NCBI GenBank assembly: GCA_963743885.1
Contig: CAVURJ010000002.1
Span: 241,706-305,705 of the forward strand
Length of the DNA: 64,000 nt
Origin: Candidatus Moraniibacteriota bacterium
GTDB taxonomy: Bacteria > Patescibacteriota > Minisyncoccia > Moranbacterales > UBA1568
Direction: 5' to 3'
Positions 14 through 62,369 of this stretch are shown in pieces. The position numbers were made by a program, and so were the translations under genes. Position 1 is the stretch's first letter, and every line of letters starts with the position of its first letter. The notes under the pieces were generated by a model. The model made no database searches. It was not told where the DNA came from and worked only from the letters and a program-made list of their open reading frames with translations.

Positions 14-1360
14 TTGGTATCACTCTCTGTTAGATTTTCTGCAAGCAATAAGACTGATTGGATAAGTATGGTAAAGCACACGGAAAACATGCAGCCGCTT
101 GCGGATCGGATGCGTCCGAAGACGATTGAGGAATTTTCCGGCCAGGAGAAGGTCTTGGGCGAGGGATCATTTCTCCGGCAGGCGATCGCAGCTGATCGGG
201 TGCCATCGCTCATCTTCTGGGGACCGCCCGGGAGCGGCAAGACGACCCTGGCGCTCCTCATCGCGCGCGAGACGGCGGCGGAATTTCATCAGCTCTCCGC
301 TGTCGGGAGCGGCGTGAAGGAGCTGCGCGCTGTCATTGAGCAAGCGGAGAAGAATAAGGCGGATGGCAAGAAGACTATTCTTTTCATCGATGAGATCCAT
401 CGCTGGAACAAGTCGCAGCAGGATGCGCTCTTGCCGCACGTCGAGCATGGGACGGTGATACTCATCGGCGCGACGACGGAGAATCCGAGTTTCGAGGTGA
501 ATGCCGCGCTCCTGTCGCGCTCGCGCGTCCTGGTGCTTGAGCGGCACAGCGAAGAGGCGCTTATCTCGCTTATGCAGCGGGCCGTAGAGTTTCTCAATCA
601 CCCATCTTCGAATGAAGGTCATTTCAATAACCCCTCACCATCGAAGACTCGGGAGCTCCCCTTGGAAAAGGGGAGCAGGATTGAAATAGATGATGCAGCG
701 ATCGCTTTTATCGCGGCGGTCTCCGGCGGCGATGCCCGGACGGCGCTCAATACACTCGAAGCCTGCGCACTCCATGCGGCGCATATCGATACAGCGGTCG
801 TCGAGAGCGTCGTCAAACGTTCGCATCTTCTCTACGATAAGGATGGCGAATGGCACTATGACATCATCTCGGCGTTCCACAAATCTATGCGCGGCGGCGA
901 TCATGATGCGGCGCTCTACTATCTCGCGCGCATGCTTGAAGCCGGGGAGGATCCGCTCTATGTCGCGCGGCGCTTGGTGCGGTTTGCATCCGAGGATGTC
1001 GGTCTCGCCAATTCATTCGCGTTGCCACAGGCGGTCGCGGCGTTTCAGGCGTGCCAGATGCTCGGGATGCCGGAGTGCGAGGTGCATCTTGCTCAGGCAG
1101 CTGTCTATCTCGCGAAGTCCAAGAAGTCCAATGCGCTCTATACCGGCTACGGCCAGGCCAAGGAGGATGTTCGGAATATGCCGAACGAACCGGTACCGAT
1201 GCATCTTCGCAATGCGCCGACCAAACTCATGAAGGGGCTCGGCTATGGCCAAGGGTACAAGTACACGCCGGACTTCAAGGATGCGAGTGAGGCAGCGCAG
1301 GAATATTTCCCGGAACGGCTCAAAGGAAGGAAATATATAGAGTTCGGCGAGGAGAAATAG
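14..1360 (+). CDS. rarA: Replication-associated recombination protein A (RarA/MgsA), AAA+ ATPase. The ORF opens with TTG at 14 and likely ATG starts are at 68 or 89. It carries an in-frame palindromic insertion at about 600-700.
   Basis: Translation has Walker A GPPGSGKTTLA, Walker B ILFIDEIHR and the MgsA C-terminal helical domain (YYLARML, GMPE), typical RarA architecture. Confidence 0.85.
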   Translation: MVSLSVRFSASNKTDWISMVKHTENMQPLADRMRPKTIEEFSGQEKVLGEGSFLRQAIAADRVPSLIFWGPPGSGKTTLALLIARETAAEFHQLSAVGSGVKELRAVIEQAEKNKADGKKTILFIDEIHRWNKSQQDALLPHVEHGTVILIGATTENPSFEVNAALLSRSRVLVLERHSEEALISLMQRAVEFLNHPSSNEGHFNNPSPSKTRELPLEKGSRIEIDDAAIAFIAAVSGGDARTALNTLEACALHAAHIDTAVVESVVKRSHLLYDKDGEWHYDIISAFHKSMRGGDHDAALYYLARMLEAGEDPLYVARRLVRFASEDVGLANSFALPQAVAAFQACQMLGMPECEVHLAQAAVYLAKSKKSNALYTGYGQAKEDVRNMPNEPVPMHLRNAPTKLMKGLGYGQGYKYTPDFKDASEAAQEYFPERLKGRKYIEFGEEK

Positions 1361-4263: not shown

Positions 4264-4698
4264 ATGTTCATCGGCGAATACAACCACACGATTGATCCGA
4301 AGAAGCGCCTCGCGCTGCCTTCGAAGTTCCGCGGGGAGCTGGGGAGCAAGGTGATTGTGACGCGCGGACTCGATAGCTGTCTCTTCGTGTATCCGATCAA
4401 GGTATGGGAGGAGCTCGCGTCGAAGCTCGGGACTTTGCCGGTCGGCGAAGCGGGGACGCGCAGCTTCATCCGTGTCATGCTGGCCGGTGCGGCCGATGTG
4501 GAGCTTGATAGTCAGGGCCGCGTGCTCTTGCCTGAATATCTGAAGCATGATGGTGGACTGAAGAAGGACGTGACGGTCGTCGGTCTCTTCAATCGTCTCG
4601 AGATCTGGGATACCGCAAAGTGGAACCGCTACAAGAGCCAGGCGGAGAAGAATACCGGCAAGATTGCGGAAGAGCTCGGCAAGCTGGGCATATATTAG
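4264..4698 (+). CDS. mraZ: Transcriptional regulator MraZ.
   Basis: Starts MFIGEYNHTIDPKKRLALPSKFR with the duplicated MraZ/SpoVT-AbrB fold and is the first gene of the dcw cluster. ATG verified at 4264. Confidence 0.9.
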   Translation: MFIGEYNHTIDPKKRLALPSKFRGELGSKVIVTRGLDSCLFVYPIKVWEELASKLGTLPVGEAGTRSFIRVMLAGAADVELDSQGRVLLPEYLKHDGGLKKDVTVVGLFNRLEIWDTAKWNRYKSQAEKNTGKIAEELGKLGIY

Positions 4699-4805
4699 TT
4701 CATAAAGTTATAAAGTTTGTAAAGTTTAAAGTCTGGAGTAAAAGGTTGGGGGATTCAAAAATCAAACATCAAAAGTTTCAGGAAGTTTTCATGTTTGAGG
4801 GTTGA

Positions 4806-5816
4806 ATGAACGATATGGATGAAACGAGACATGTTTCCGTACTGCTTAAGGAAGCAGTAGACGGGTTGCACCTTAAGAAAGGGATGGTCGTCGTCGATGC
4901 GACGCTCGGTGGGGGTGGTCATGCGAGAGCGGTGCTCGAGCAGATTCTTCCTGCCCGAAATGCTGCGCATAACGCTGCAGGCGGGCCTGGCGGACGCCTG
5001 ATCGCTATCGATGCTGACGTACAGGCCCTCGAGCGTTTCAGGGAACGCGCTGAGACCGATAGTCTTTTCACGGATGCACTCCGTGATGGGACGCTCGTGC
5101 TCGTGCATGGGAATTATTCCGACCTGGGAGGGGCGCTTGAGGCAGCTGGTGTGACAGCTCTCGATGCGGTACTCGCTGATCTCGGATTTTCTTCCGATCA
5201 GATCGAATCGCCGGAACGTGGTTTCAGCTTCCAGAAGGACGGACCGCTTGATATGCGGCTCGATCAGGGAGGCGAGCTCACGGCAGAGGCTGTAGTGAAC
5301 GGATATGCTTCCGGTGAACTCGAAAGGATATTTCGGACATACGGCGAAGAATCGGAGAGCCGGCGGATTGCTCGGATGATCATCACAGAGAGGGAGAAGC
5401 AGCCGATCAAGACGACCAAGGAACTGGCTGATCTCATCTTGCGCGCGTATCCAGCAGGAAAGCGTCGTGCGATGAAGATCCATCCGGCTACCAAGGTATT
5501 CCAGGCACTCCGTATCGCGGTCAACCGCGAGTATGAGCATCTGGAGATGTTCCTTGAAGAGGCAGTTGAGCGTTTGAATCCAGGGGGAAGACTGGCGGTC
5601 ATCACGTTCCATTCTGGAGAAGACCGTATCGTCAAGCAGTTCTTCCGGGATCAGTCGCTCGGTTGTGTCTGTCCAGCTGGATTTCCGGTCTGCCGCTGCG
5701 GCCATGTCGCGACGGTGTCGGTCATCACGAAACGGCCGATTGTACCGGGCGATTCAGAGACGAGAGAGAATCCTCGGGCACGGAGCGCGAAGCTCCGGAT
5801 CGCCGAGAAGGCCTGA
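4806..5816 (+). CDS. rsmH: 16S rRNA (cytosine1402-N4)-methyltransferase RsmH (MraW).
   Basis: HVSVLLKEAV, DATLGGGGH, GFSSDQIE and AVITFHSGEDRIVK motifs. Follows mraZ. Confidence 0.9.
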   Translation: MNDMDETRHVSVLLKEAVDGLHLKKGMVVVDATLGGGGHARAVLEQILPARNAAHNAAGGPGGRLIAIDADVQALERFRERAETDSLFTDALRDGTLVLVHGNYSDLGGALEAAGVTALDAVLADLGFSSDQIESPERGFSFQKDGPLDMRLDQGGELTAEAVVNGYASGELERIFRTYGEESESRRIARMIITEREKQPIKTTKELADLILRAYPAGKRRAMKIHPATKVFQALRIAVNREYEHLEMFLEEAVERLNPGGRLAVITFHSGEDRIVKQFFRDQSLGCVCPAGFPVCRCGHVATVSVITKRPIVPGDSETRENPRARSAKLRIAEKA

Positions 5817-37718: not shown

Positions 37719-37754
37719 CACCCCGCACTTTCCGAAAGTGCGGGGTTTCTTTTG
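37719..37754 (+). terminator. Rho-independent terminator after hpf.
   Basis: 11-bp stem ccccgcacttt/gaaagtgcgggg followed by tttctttt. Confidence 0.75.
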
Positions 37755-45010: not shown

Positions 45011-45050
45011 GTGTACATATTTTCCTACGACCGTGGGAAAATATGTACAC
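45011..45050. promoter_or_regulatory. Perfect 15-bp inverted repeat, gtgtacatattttcc-N10-ggaaaatatgtacac, upstream of the L,D-transpeptidase gene.
   Basis: Seen directly. No T-run follows, so it is more likely an operator than a terminator. Confidence 0.35.
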
Positions 45051-56682: not shown

Positions 56683-58215
56683 ATGAAGATATTATTAGCT
56701 GGACCAGGAACTGGGAAAACAACAAATATAGGAAATATCATCAAGGGCAAAGAAAGTCTCGATGGTATTTTAGTAATCTCATTTACCAATGCCACTGTTG
56801 AAGACTTGAAAAAATCACTTTCTCAAGTAGGGTTGCCTCTGGAGAATTGTATGACACTTCATAAGCTTGCCGTGAAGTATAACCACGATAAATCAAGGCA
56901 CGTTCTTGAGGTGATGGAGGCTAATGAACTTTACAAAATATCTAAATCAACCGAAATTGGTTTCAATGAGCTGTGTGATTTTCTATCAGCCACAACTTTC
57001 GACCAAATGATTGGTCGTTTTGTTGCCTATGCGAAATCAAATCCAGAGTATCTCAAAGAAAAGCTCTCAAGATATTCCGTGTTGATAGTTGATGAGTATC
57101 AAGACTTCAACAAAAACGAACAGGAACTCATTGATTTACTTGTTGGGATAATGCCTGATACTTATATCCTTGGAGATGATGACCAGTGTATATATGACTT
57201 CAAAGATGCGGATAATGATAAAATTATCTCTCTTTACTCGGATGCTTCACACGAAAAAATTGAACACGAGCATAAATGTTACAGATGCCCCGATGTGGTT
57301 GTTGATAGTGCTACAAAACTTATAAAAAAGAATACTAAACGAGTTGATAAGAAGTGGGAAAAAAATGGTAACGTAGGAAACCTTGTTCAGAGGCAATTCG
57401 CGTCAAATACCAATACGGCGGATTACATTTTAGAAGAAGTAAAAAAAATACTCGAAGACAATGCAGATGATAAGGTTTTGATTTTGAGCCCTGTTGGTTT
57501 TCTTGTGGAAACCCTTACAAATGTATTGGATGGTTCGGGAATTGAATACAGGAACTATTTTATTGCAAAAGTAGACCCAGAACTTGTTATAAAGTCTTGG
57601 GTTTTGAGAGCTTGTTTTGGTAGGCATAAATACTTGAACCTAATGCTCATTGGATACAGAGTTCTTTCATCAAGAAAAAAATTCTACGAAACAATCAAGA
57701 AACACTATGCTTCGGGGCAGGACTTTGATGAGCTTTTCAAAGTGGTTGCAAGCAAGTTGCCAGATGAAGGGAAAAAAACTTATGATAGCGTTGCTATCGC
57801 TCTACAAGAGCCATATTTTCAGGGTCTTACTGATTTTTTCAATAACGCTGAAGGCGGGAGTGAGGATGAAAAACTGGAGAACCTGTTTGTTTTGGTAGAC
57901 GAGAATGTTGAAAAACGAGTGAATATAATGTCTATCCATAAGTCAAAGGGTCTTGGTGCAGAACACGTTTTTATGATTGGATTGGTTGAAGGTATCATCC
58001 CGAACCGTGCAAAAGGAAATGATACAATCGAGAGCCAGAGGAGACTTTTCTATGTTGGTATGACCAGAGCAAAAAAGAACCTACATCTCATCTCAAGCAT
58101 CAATTTTGAGGGTAGATACGTGAATACTGTAAACAAGGACGACTTCAGGTTTGATGTTAGGTCTCGTCTGTGGAAGGGTAAATCTTCTCGATTTATTGAG
58201 GAAATAAACGCATAG
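56683..58215 (+). CDS. Short UvrD/Rep-like SF1 helicase with no nuclease domain.
   Basis: Walker A GPGTGKTT, motif II VLIVDEYQDFN, motif V/VI SIHKSKGLGAEHVFMIG and YVGMTRAKKNLHL. Confidence 0.75.
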   Translation: MKILLAGPGTGKTTNIGNIIKGKESLDGILVISFTNATVEDLKKSLSQVGLPLENCMTLHKLAVKYNHDKSRHVLEVMEANELYKISKSTEIGFNELCDFLSATTFDQMIGRFVAYAKSNPEYLKEKLSRYSVLIVDEYQDFNKNEQELIDLLVGIMPDTYILGDDDQCIYDFKDADNDKIISLYSDASHEKIEHEHKCYRCPDVVVDSATKLIKKNTKRVDKKWEKNGNVGNLVQRQFASNTNTADYILEEVKKILEDNADDKVLILSPVGFLVETLTNVLDGSGIEYRNYFIAKVDPELVIKSWVLRACFGRHKYLNLMLIGYRVLSSRKKFYETIKKHYASGQDFDELFKVVASKLPDEGKKTYDSVAIALQEPYFQGLTDFFNNAEGGSEDEKLENLFVLVDENVEKRVNIMSIHKSKGLGAEHVFMIGLVEGIIPNRAKGNDTIESQRRLFYVGMTRAKKNLHLISSINFEGRYVNTVNKDDFRFDVRSRLWKGKSSRFIEEINA

Positions 58216-59996: not shown

Positions 59997-60160
59997 CCAT
60001 CCCAAGTGATTGCCACTCCTGCAATTCTCGGGTAAGATAGTTCCAATTGAGTAGGAGGTAGTCCACACTTCGACTCGCTTCGCTCGCTCAGTGTAAACAC
60101 GAAATACTGAGAAGCGAGGTGAAGTACCCTGAGCCTGTCGAAGGGCATCATAGCTCCTGT

Positions 60161-60415
60161 ATGGCTTGGTACACATATATTGCGAAAGCGAGAACCGGCC
60201 GGTACTATACCGGTATTACGAATGATCCTTGTAAAAGAATTGAGAAACACAATTCTGGAAAAGGTTCTCTCATGGCGGTTCAACAGGGGCCATTTGATCT
60301 CGTGTATGTTTCGAATGAATTTCCAGGAAAATCAGAAGCTAGAAAACGGGAAGAACAGATTAAGGGCTGGAGCAGAGAAAAGAAAGAGAAGTTGATTTTT
60401 GGTGAATGGGTATAG
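60161..60415 (+). CDS. GIY-YIG nuclease family protein.
   Basis: WYTYIAKARTGRYYTGITNDPCKRIEKHNSG is the GIY-YIG/URI signature. The ORF opens with GTG at 60119 and ATG at 60161 is the more likely start. Confidence 0.7.
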   Translation: MAWYTYIAKARTGRYYTGITNDPCKRIEKHNSGKGSLMAVQQGPFDLVYVSNEFPGKSEARKREEQIKGWSREKKEKLIFGEWV

Positions 60416-60440
60416 TCGTTAATAACGAGCAGTGAGATAT

Positions 60441-60455
60441 CTCCCCAGGTCCACA
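60441..60455 (+). repeat. attR core: direct repeat of the tRNA-Ala 3' end (tctccccaggtccac).
   Basis: 15/15 identity with 46366-46380. Confidence 0.55.
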
Positions 60456-60464
60456 CTAAAACCA

Positions 60465-60600: not shown

Positions 60601-61146
60601 ATGAGCGCAGAGCAACGCCCGCAGACTCTTGACGAGTGTGCCGAGGAGCGGGAGAAGTTTGAGATGTTGACTGAGGCATCTCCGGATTGCATAAAGCTGT
60701 TTGATCTCGAGAATAAGCTCCTCTTCATGTCGAAGGGCGGTCTGGAAGAACACAGCTTCAAGACGATGGGGGAGGCAATCGGTTTTGATTGGACCGAGAC
60801 AGTCGTGCCGGAGCAGCGGGAAGAGATACGTCAGAAGATCAAGGAGAGCATCGAAGAGAGGAAGATCGTTTCTCTTGATGTGAAGCATCTGCCGGAATTC
60901 GCTAATCGTGAATGGTGCCATCTGCTCATATGCCCTGTATTCGATGATGCCGGGAAGGTGAAGTATTTCGTCGGTATTTCTCGCGATATTTCCGATCGCA
61001 AGCATTCCGAGGAACAGATGAAGCGATATATCGAGGAACTCGAGCTTTTCAATAAGGTGACTGTTGGGCGTGAGCTGAAGATGGCCGAATTGAAGAAAGA
61101 GAATGAGGAGCTCAAGAAAGATACGGGTGGAAAGGCTGAAGGATGA
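60601..61146 (+). CDS. PAS-domain (S-box) protein with a C-terminal coiled coil.
   Basis: PAS core (...DCIKLFDLENKLLFMSKGGLEEHSF...VGISRDISDRKHSEEQ). A palindromic operator-like site lies upstream. Confidence 0.7.
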   Translation: MSAEQRPQTLDECAEEREKFEMLTEASPDCIKLFDLENKLLFMSKGGLEEHSFKTMGEAIGFDWTETVVPEQREEIRQKIKESIEERKIVSLDVKHLPEFANREWCHLLICPVFDDAGKVKYFVGISRDISDRKHSEEQMKRYIEELELFNKVTVGRELKMAELKKENEELKKDTGGKAEG

Positions 61147-62369
61147 ATTTTTCCGATCTCAAGAATTATGAGTATACCCTCCCGCCGGAATTGATCCGGA
61201 AGGAGGGGGTGGAGCCGCGAGACAGCGCGCGCCTGTTTGTTTATGACACGCGGACGGATACCGTGACATTTGATACGTTCGCTCATATAGCACAGTATCT
61301 GCCGGAGCGATCGCTTCTGACGCTCAACGATACCAAAGTACTGCCGGCGCGGCTCTGGCTCAAGAAGGAGACCGGCGGCAAGATCGAAGTCTTCGTGTTG
61401 GCTAATGAGATTAGTCAGTCACCACCTCCCCTTTCCAAGGGGAGGGTAGGGAGGGGTGAGAGTGAGAGTATCAAGAACCCCTCAGTCTCGCAGACTCGAC
61501 AGCTCCCCTTGGAAAGGGGGGCGAGAGAGATAGTTCCGGCTTTGGTCGATCGGAAGACCGAGGTCGGGCAGAAGCTCATCTTCCCGACGGGGGAATATTT
61601 CGAAGTGGTTGGACAAGAAGAGAATGTCTTCTTCCTCGAGCTGTTCACGTACGCGGACCGTACGCTTCCGCTTCTGCTTGATCTCTTTGGCGAGACACCG
61701 CTCCCGCACTATCTTGAAGGAGCAGAGACGCCAGAGGATACCTTGCGCAAGCGGTATCAGACGGTCTTCGCAGCCGCTGGGGCATCGGTCGCGGCGCCGA
61801 CGGCCTCGCTTCACTTCACTGAGGCCGTGTTTGAGTCTCTGGATGAGAAGGGGATTGAGACGGCGCGGCTCACGCTCAATGTGGGCCTCGGGACCTTCGC
61901 TCCGCTCCGTGAGGAGAGCTTCGTGACGGGTAGGCTCCATGCAGAATACGTCTCGGTCTCGGAAGAGACGGCTGAGCGGATCAATGCGGCAAAGAGCGAG
62001 GAGAGAGGTATCGTCGCGGTCGGCACGACGGTGGCTCGGACGCTCGAGTCGGTCGCATCAAAGTCTTACAACTTAAGCAATTGCTCAAATTGTAAGACTG
62101 ATGGTGGCAAGGATGACGGAGCAGAGATGCTAGGAAAAATGATGGCCTATGCTGGCAAGACGGATATCTTCATCTACCCACCGTATAAGTTCCAGGTAGT
62201 CGATCATCTCATTACGAATTTTCATTTGCCAGAGACGTCGCTCATGCTTCTGGTGGATGCCTTCCTCGCGCACAAGGGTGCCAAGCGCCGCATCATGGAC
62301 CTCTACTCTATCGCCATCAAGGAGCAGTTCGCCTTCTATTCTTTCGGTGATAGCATGCTGATTTTGTAG
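61143..62369 (+). CDS. queA: S-adenosylmethionine:tRNA ribosyltransferase-isomerase QueA, carrying in-frame insertions.
   Basis: TLPPELI, NDTKVLPARL, GGKIEVFVL, GTTVARTLES, VTNFHLPETSLMLLV and FFSYGDSMLI motifs. Carries extra segments at about 61405-61545 and 62058-62130 relative to QueA as I remember it. Confidence 0.85.
   Translation: MNFSDLKNYEYTLPPELIRKEGVEPRDSARLFVYDTRTDTVTFDTFAHIAQYLPERSLLTLNDTKVLPARLWLKKETGGKIEVFVLANEISQSPPPLSKGRVGRGESESIKNPSVSQTRQLPLERGAREIVPALVDRKTEVGQKLIFPTGEYFEVVGQEENVFFLELFTYADRTLPLLLDLFGETPLPHYLEGAETPEDTLRKRYQTVFAAAGASVAAPTASLHFTEAVFESLDEKGIETARLTLNVGLGTFAPLREESFVTGRLHAEYVSVSEETAERINAAKSEERGIVAVGTTVARTLESVASKSYNLSNCSNCKTDGGKDDGAEMLGKMMAYAGKTDIFIYPPYKFQVVDHLITNFHLPETSLMLLVDAFLAHKGAKRRIMDLYSIAIKEQFAFYSFGDSMLIL

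Follow-up and report, generated by a model that had tools for sequence, protein, structure and literature searches.

Our analysis of a 64,000-nt stretch of DNA from Candidatus Moraniibacteriota bacterium (assembly GCA_963743885.1, contig CAVURJ010000002.1, positions 241,706 to 305,705; the whole stretch is called the window here) indicates that its queA gene probably acquired short palindromic repeats at positions encoding two surface loops of the protein and still encodes a complete enzyme. At one loop, site 1, lies an inverted doublet similar to REPINs (hairpin-forming doublets of repetitive extragenic palindromic, REP, sequences) and to bacterial interspersed mosaic elements (BIMEs), and at the other, site 4, a separate palindrome. 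We assign a probability of about 0.7 to this reading, in which the units are non-autonomous repeats at the level of DNA and the peptides encoded by them are passengers. Our verdict is that of coding palindromes similar to Rickettsia palindromic elements (RPEs) or to REPINs in a lineage of the Candidate Phyla Radiation (CPR).

Two in-frame inserts in queA

The original prediction, made from the letters of the window, held that queA carries at least three hairpin insertions in frame. All three hairpins are present within one uninterrupted open reading frame (ORF), but they represent insertions at two sites only, the two GC-rich hairpins being halves of one composite (Table 1). The best protein matches of the window QueA were QueAs of Candidatus Moranbacteria/Patescibacteria (homologues, P, and loci, L, are given by our own numbers). 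With 408 amino acids (aa) it is 58 aa longer than its closest relatives P0003, P0004 and P0005 (350 aa; ~85% identity over core columns), and both inserts are without counterpart in the alignment with these three, an ortholog alignment having been proposed as a check. Nor do the QueA structures solved for T. maritima, T. thermophilus and B. subtilis contain the extra segments; with these, the alignment flanks each insert and does not cross it. The insert-encoded peptides include GRVGRGESESIK and SYNLSNCSNCK. queA had also been called an essential gene, which it is not in E. coli.

The AlphaFold model of the window QueA (118 homologues) had a mean predicted local distance difference test score (pLDDT) of 84, with the core above 90, and its top Foldseek matches were the QueA structures 1wdi, 1yy3 and 1vky. 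The site-1 region is modelled as coil with pLDDT 42-68 (10-residue blocks, residues 91-130), and the site-4 loop, placed between helix 295-307 and strand 336-342, has pLDDT 51-60 (10-residue blocks, residues 311-330). Both inserts are hence predicted to occupy low-confidence loop positions between conserved strands and helices that are compatible with the fold, which answers the question, raised with the original prediction, whether they map to surface loops.

Table 1. Coordinates of queA, its inserts and the repeat units in the window
Feature	Position	Strand	Remarks
queA ORF	61143..62369	+	408 aa, PF02547; uninterrupted through both inserts
Site-1 insert	61413..61532	+	net +105 nt / +35 aa vs P0003, after VFVLANEI (codon alignments)
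Unit A (short spacer, inverted; holds hairpin 61425-61445)	61419..61458	-	covariance model 46.1 bits, E 4e-10
Variable spacer, loop of the long hairpin	61459..61475	+	unconserved among the window, P0048 and glycosyltransferase copies
Unit B (long spacer; holds hairpin 61502-61522)	61476..61528	+	covariance model 70.7 bits
Site-4 insert-bearing loop	62058..62144	+	net +69 nt / +23 aa vs P0003, after RTLESVA (codon alignments)
AT-rich palindrome AGTCTTAC-N22-GTAAGACT	62062..62099	.	38 nt, 17/19 pairs
Unit B singlet in rarA (ORF 68-1360), in-frame	629..681	+	covariance model 76.3 bits

Site 1 carries an inverted doublet of one GC-rich unit

The first GC-rich hairpin (61425-61445, CCTCCCCTT-tcc-AAGGGGAGG) has a perfect 9-bp stem and the second (61502-61522, GCTCCCCTT-gga-AAGGGGGGC) has eight Watson-Crick pairs and one G.T pair; folded as single-stranded DNA they reach -9.7 and -7.7 kcal/mol, respectively (z -3.1 and -2.7 against dinucleotide shuffles). 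The first had been described as the second with its loop flipped, and the two are indeed mutually reverse complementary, sharing a 17-nt perfect inverted repeat (61428-61444 / 61503-61519). Positioned at the two ends of the doublet, this repeat provides terminal inverted repeats of the kind that define MITEs (miniature transposable elements bounded by inverted repeats), and the whole doublet (123 nt) folds as one long stem (-30.4 kcal/mol, z -5.25, single-stranded DNA). Unit B contains, in addition, a small internal hairpin, AGTCT-cgc-AGACT (61485-61497). Since the reverse complement of block A shows the architecture of unit B with a shorter spacer, the two blocks are variants of one unit of 40-53 nt, composed of the head ACCCCTC, a spacer of 5-16 nt, the stem sCTCCCCTT, a loop, AAGGGGAGs and the tail AGG. 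A single composite, the inverted doublet of one GC-rich unit, is thus a better reading of site 1 than two unrelated hairpins. With up to 2 mismatches allowed, the window contains three occurrences of the core motif CCCCTTTCCAAGGGG where 0.15 would be expected, and none of 100 shuffles attained three.

Both blocks were found in unchanged order at site 1 of the queA gene of P0048, the protein of which is ~61% identical to that of the window. DNA identity between the two genes amounts to 92% in block A and 96% in block B, and to only 65-70% in the flanking queA DNA. Unit B is read in different frames in these two genes (NPSVSQTRQLPLERGA in the window vs KPLSLEDSTAPLGKGG in P0048), which argues that it is the DNA that is conserved and not the peptide. 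In an alignment of nine unit B copies, drawn from six families of host genes, the boundaries are sharp (ACCCCTCA ... GCAGGA), which directly supports membership in a repeat family.

The GC-rich unit is dispersed among unrelated genes

The window holds three units, two in queA and one in rarA. The rarA unit forms a perfect 9-bp hairpin at 655-676, and rarA 624-673 is 84% identical to queA 61471-61520 over 50 nt, which bears out the claim of an element common to the two genes. Compared with its closest homologues (409 aa, 83-85% identity), which have no unit, the window RarA has 21 additional aa; among 120 RarA homologues only P0209 (~70% identity) contains a similar NPSVPKTEQLPF... segment, at the same site, where homologue P0199 carries different inserts.

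Patterns derived from block B were searched in 185,579 representative genomes, which do not include the source genome and hence gave no self match, and in metagenomes of the Joint Genome Institute (JGI). The scan of representative genomes revealed the A+B composite, antisense, in a glycosyltransferase gene and B alone in a SufC-like ABC ATPase gene, both from Moranbacteria RIFCSPLOWO2_12_FULL_48_12. The metagenomes returned the same two loci from three further samples each and added genes for an IleS-like class-I aminoacyl-tRNA synthetase and for MnmA, with B found alone in each. As the glycosyltransferase and SufC-like loci are thereby present in four assemblies each, they are not an assembly artefact. 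At each of the four loci that the DNA pattern alone had revealed, the element is in frame (4/4), against a chance expectation of (1/3)^4. Three further metagenome matches were rejected as chance, no other part of the element being present.

A covariance model built from 14 training copies and searched against 166 kb of sequence recovered all 14 and, in the MnmA gene, an A-type unit not seen before. Together with the pattern scans this gives 15 units, singlets or doublets, across at least six assemblies, hosted by QueA (sites 1, 2 and 4), RarA, an ABC/SufC-like ATPase, the IleS-like class-I synthetase, MnmA and a GT4 glycosyltransferase. All 15 lie inside long ORFs and keep the frame open, and Pfam confirmed the host families, with domains continuing on both sides of each element. 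Residence in frame within unrelated genes is therefore observed directly, as is the use of several frames, namely three sense and one antisense; by our own translation, the unit B consensus is free of stop codons in five of six frames. The original prediction had named, as evidence that would speak against it, a conserved protein feature with no palindromic DNA elsewhere, and the GC-rich units, read in frames that differ among copies, are not of this kind. Among other QueAs, A-type singlets occur at site 2 of P0048 and of P0116, the latter copy being diverged with its hairpin retained and its loop changed, and a B-type singlet in reverse orientation occurs at site 4 of P0107. The proposal of a gene-invading family is thus upheld for the GC-rich units, which occupy six or more unrelated gene families from several Moranbacteria assemblies, and is not supported for the AT-rich palindrome, which was found at QueA site 4 only, in three lineages.

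A peptide census with a multi-frame pseudo-protein against 5.8 billion proteins returned the SufC-like protein alone (E 1.7), the word-index method being unsuited to segments of 17 aa. No Rfam family matched the insert sequences; one sub-threshold match resembling a miRNA precursor merely mirrors the long hairpin.

Two host loci deserve a separate remark. The metagenome MnmA gene (L016, units at 4656-4695 and 4763-4815) carries its two units, directly oriented, in a pair of loops on either side of the conserved ATGHYA motif, and is a second tRNA-modification gene invaded more than once. The IleS-like ORF (L012) has unit B near residue 222 and a C-terminal segment, CHSREVGNPGSTDS, typical of a different hairpin-peptide family.

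The AT-rich palindrome of site 4

The core of the site-4 palindrome is a perfect 9-bp stem, GTCTTACAA...TTGTAAGAC, around AGCAATTGCT. The stem is as originally described, at 62063-62098, about 4 nt away from the position first given. The palindrome encodes SYNLSNCSNCKT and folds as single-stranded DNA at -9.9 kcal/mol (z -4.2 against dinucleotide shuffles). The minimum free energy of the whole AT-rich insert segments is not significant against other windows of the same gene, because of the weak A-T stems and the non-palindromic tails, while the palindrome itself is significant against shuffles.

Homologous palindromes are present at site 4 of P0002 (L002 3836-3873) and P0029 (L004 8809-8846). 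That of P0029 is perfect (-17 kcal/mol, z -8.3) and that of P0002 is decaying. In all three the outer 8 nt of each arm are invariant and the inner 11 pairs vary, with three two-sided changes that keep the pairing; 89.5% of cells are paired, against 27-39% with the partners slid. The carriers do not form a clade on the neighbour-joining tree, in which P0003-5 fall between P0001 and P0002 and P0029 is distant. The AT-rich palindrome cannot be called a member of a dispersed family.

Eight matches of the pattern AGTCTTAC-N22-GTAAGACT in viral contigs were dismissed as chance, with 2-4 of 11 inner pairs, and the downstream GKTD codons, considered as a source of the right arm, were rejected because the 5-6 nt in common are likely to match by chance. 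The outermost 5 nt of the palindrome (AGTCT...AGACT; 62062-62066 / 62095-62099) equal those of the small hairpin of unit B, which may be chance.

Turnover of inserts among QueA homologues

Inserts of at least 5 aa were surveyed in the 120 best Moranbacteria QueA homologues, with parsimony on a neighbour-joining tree of core columns. Such inserts occupy four loop sites in 16, 18, 12 and 23 sequences, respectively, and require at least 9 + 11 + 9 + 13 = 42 gains or losses; their patchy presence among orthologues is directly supported, and many different hairpin-type inserts occupy the four loops. The site-1 doublet, present in three sequences, requires three changes on the tree. Between the window and P0048 the elements are 82% identical and the hosts ~61%, and between P0048 and P0116 the elements are 66% identical and the hosts 76%; by these sequence identities, element similarity is incongruent with host phylogeny. 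The hot spots are better explained by loops that tolerate inserts than by strict sequence-specific homing, because several families, both orientations and several sites are involved; repeated insertion at the same site is also a possible explanation.

Many of the inserts contain peptides typical of translated GC-rich hairpins (DSRLRGNDK, IPRQARND, ...GMT..., VIPGETRNPG and PLLRKGEGE). The first four of these, together with LRQAQGD and PLPTSPLAGG, recur at the four loops in other QueAs and seem to represent further families of GC-rich hairpins (ATTCC...GGAAT type) in varied reading frames. The queA gene of P0114 (L018), the closest relative of P0048 with 85% identity, is without the doublet and has at site 1 the sequence GCCAAGGGGGAT, perhaps left over from a deletion.

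Other features of the window

A small stand-alone GIY-YIG nuclease gene (ORF 60119-60415; span 60061-60457) is located just upstream of a PAS gene and queA. It is bracketed by an exact 9-nt direct repeat, GTCCACACT (60061-60069 and 60449-60457; 0.16 expected), and a GC-rich structured stretch overlaps its start; the neighbourhood from GIY-YIG to queA is found in L002 as well. The gene with its flanking repeats may be a small mobile cassette.

The longest perfect hairpins of the window, at 37720-37746 and 45013-45048, have stems of 12 and 13 bp (ACCCCGCACTTT-ccg-AAAGTGCGGGGT and GTACATATTTTCC...GGAAAATATGTAC, respectively), and neither lies in a convincing long ORF. Positions 58004-58103, downstream of a cluster of methyltransferase, ResIII and UvrD-like helicase genes, matched the Rfam family RF03531 (n00280, 'C. 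difficile sRNA included into helicase gene') below threshold, with 37 bits vs a gathering score of 65 (E 0.002).

Discussion

The GC-rich units would be copied at the level of DNA into new places and then lost again, behaving as selfish or neutral DNA. A unit would survive only where its added length keeps the frame, where the frame used has no stop codon and where the extra peptide sits in a disordered, solvent-exposed loop, and the encoded peptides would be passengers. Dispersal to unrelated genes, sharp boundaries and incongruence with the host trees suggest that the units move by themselves, possibly by hairpin-dependent transposition or recombination. As none of the copies disrupts the frame, not even the four detected only through the DNA pattern, the inserts are presumably translated. 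QueA carrying them presumably stays active.

Several results weigh against this reading. The copy number is low, with 3 units in 64 kb of this genome, and strict patterns give two matches in the 185,579 representative genomes and about five distinct JGI metagenome loci. No mobilising enzyme turned up, the window ORFs not having been screened for transposases, and the flanks of the nine copies, read by eye, show no consistent target-site duplication, a weak GAGAT(T)AGT / GAGATAGTT similarity being seen around the window copy. The description of the family as active, made in the original prediction, is on these grounds not sustained. In the nine copies the 5' arm of the GC-rich stem is invariant and the 3' arm has single changes only, a pattern that does not establish structure-preserving covariation. 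At site 4 the two-sided changes in three sequences fall short of significance (the observed value is attained by 73 of 500 shuffles), and no copy of the AT-rich palindrome was found outside QueA site 4 in the window and the contigs of the three carriers. All copies of the GC-rich unit are genic, but CPR genomes are ~90% coding, so that this alone indicates no preference.

A more far-reaching claim would be that CPR (Moranbacteria) genomes harbour loop-homing, REPIN-like families of very short hairpin repeats, adapted to residence in frame, which invade identical loop-coding positions of conserved enzymes again and again, and that coding palindromes are a general shaper of CPR proteomes and not an oddity of Rickettsia. 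It is prompted by cases in which distant orthologues share a unit at one site and closer orthologues are without it (QueA site 1 in the window and P0048; RarA in the window and P0209) and by the incongruence between element similarity and host phylogeny, and we consider it rather unlikely. Unlikely, too, is that the palindromes were made in place, by template switching during replication or by repair primed from hairpins, where the sequence coding for loops is fragile, with the arms kept symmetrical in the same manner and spread occurring only by descent or by homologous recombination between lineages. The AT-rich palindrome agrees well with such an origin, as it was found at one position in three QueAs only, is perfect in P0029 and decaying in P0002, and shows three two-sided changes that keep its symmetry; the possible remnant at site 1 of P0114 suggests local deletion as well. 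For the AT-rich palindrome, local origin by template switching with homogenisation of the arms is a live alternative. What this process cannot explain is the 50-nt unit B with its sharp boundaries, in six unrelated gene families and in both orientations. We regard as still less probable that the hairpins are DNA or mRNA signals selected by the host and not selfish, such as pauses of translation for co-translational folding, sites for RNase or protein binding, or a REP-like role in supercoiling. Conservation of their DNA above that of the host gene, the hairpin retained in the diverged P0116 copy and positions between folded protein elements would fit such signals, whereas the lack of inserts in the closest orthologues, the high turnover, the many unrelated sequence families in the same loops, the occurrence in either orientation and the lack of any matching Rfam family would not.

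Lineage-specific functional protein loops with incidentally palindromic DNA are very unlikely, and for site 1 this explanation is already largely refuted. The inserts do keep the frame and sit on the predicted surface, and three QueAs have conserved SY...SKT ends in the site-4 peptide; however, these ends are simply the conserved arms of the palindrome, the GC-rich DNA is read in four frames into unrelated peptides, the nearest relatives are without the inserts, and the segments are coil of low predicted confidence. Elements of coding sequence bypassed by ribosomes are known from the byp elements of yeast mitochondria and from phage T4 gene 60. Stable hairpins within a coding sequence would suit removal of the inserts from the mRNA by splicing or such a bypass, which would keep them out of the protein, but every copy keeps the frame and has no stop in the frame used, a constraint unexpected for a skipped segment; with no intron-like or take-off/landing features seen and nothing from Rfam, we give this possibility hardly any weight. 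Hence, translated repeat DNA that spreads as DNA is our preferred explanation for the GC-rich units.

In the parts of PMC10969869 that summarise Ogata et al. 2000, 2002, RPEs are described as inserted in frame in unrelated housekeeping genes and compatible with the fold of the host protein. As far as that account goes, RPEs share with the present units palindromic repeat DNA in frame in unrelated housekeeping genes, an intact ORF, compatibility with the fold, patchy presence among orthologues and no known transposase. By the same account, RPEs are longer (~100-150 bp, against 40-53 nt for the Moranbacteria unit and ~105 nt for the doublet), each RPE family encodes one conserved peptide whereas unit B is read in four frames, and the 44 copies reported for R. 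conorii appear to exceed the copy number here by far. The host, moreover, belongs to a different phylum (CPR/Moranbacteria). RPEs are the closest known kind by likeness of features.

REPINs are inverted doublets of REP palindromes. The present units resemble REP, REPIN and BIME sequences in being short imperfect palindromes that occur as singlets and as inverted doublets folding into one long hairpin. REPs carry a GTAG or CGTC tag (PMC3733652), whereas the conserved ends of the unit are ACCCCTC and GCAGG and GTAG is seen only in the unconserved spacer of window unit A. REPs are also extragenic by definition, usually present in hundreds of copies and linked to REP-associated tyrosine transposases (RAYTs); all 15 units, in contrast, are intragenic, in frame and of low copy number, and a density of 3 per 64 kb argues against a high one.

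Hairpin elements are known from mitochondrial genes as well, in the form of yeast GC clusters/byps and of the double-hairpin elements (DHEs) of Allomyces, the byps being bypassed and not translated. The coding palindromes of Nematomorpha mitochondria (PMC6649704) show a hairpin tolerated inside a protein-coding gene, and the site-4 palindrome is similar in that its arms stay symmetrical; there, however, both arms encode conserved protein regions, while the QueA palindromes sit in dispensable loops. All these organellar cases (Nematomorpha, yeast, Allomyces) differ from ours in genetic context. Intragenic MITEs such as QMITE1 of Coxiella (PMC5896051) and enterobacterial RU/ERIC (PMC2759123) are likewise inverted-repeat elements that lack autonomy, overlap with ORFs and can contribute peptides, but MITEs measure 100-400 bp, have target-site duplications and are often related to insertion sequences (IS), whereas the present units are much shorter and no duplication or parent IS was seen. 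A literature search found no description of such in-frame hairpin elements in CPR/Patescibacteria, which is not proof that there is none.

In-frame palindromic 'selfish DNA' has so far been treated as a peculiarity of Rickettsia; here it is met in an unrelated, uncultured phylum, with shorter REP-like units, doublets and several families. The hot-spot pattern is clear, with 42 or more gains or losses at four loops of one enzyme across 120 orthologues. If the phenomenon is general, it would explain part of the unexplained variation in protein length of CPR bacteria and would caution those who annotate genes or predict structures that loops of this type are repeat DNA. It would also provide natural maps of insertion-tolerant sites in conserved enzymes and a tractable system for the spread of hairpin repeats without a recognisable transposase.

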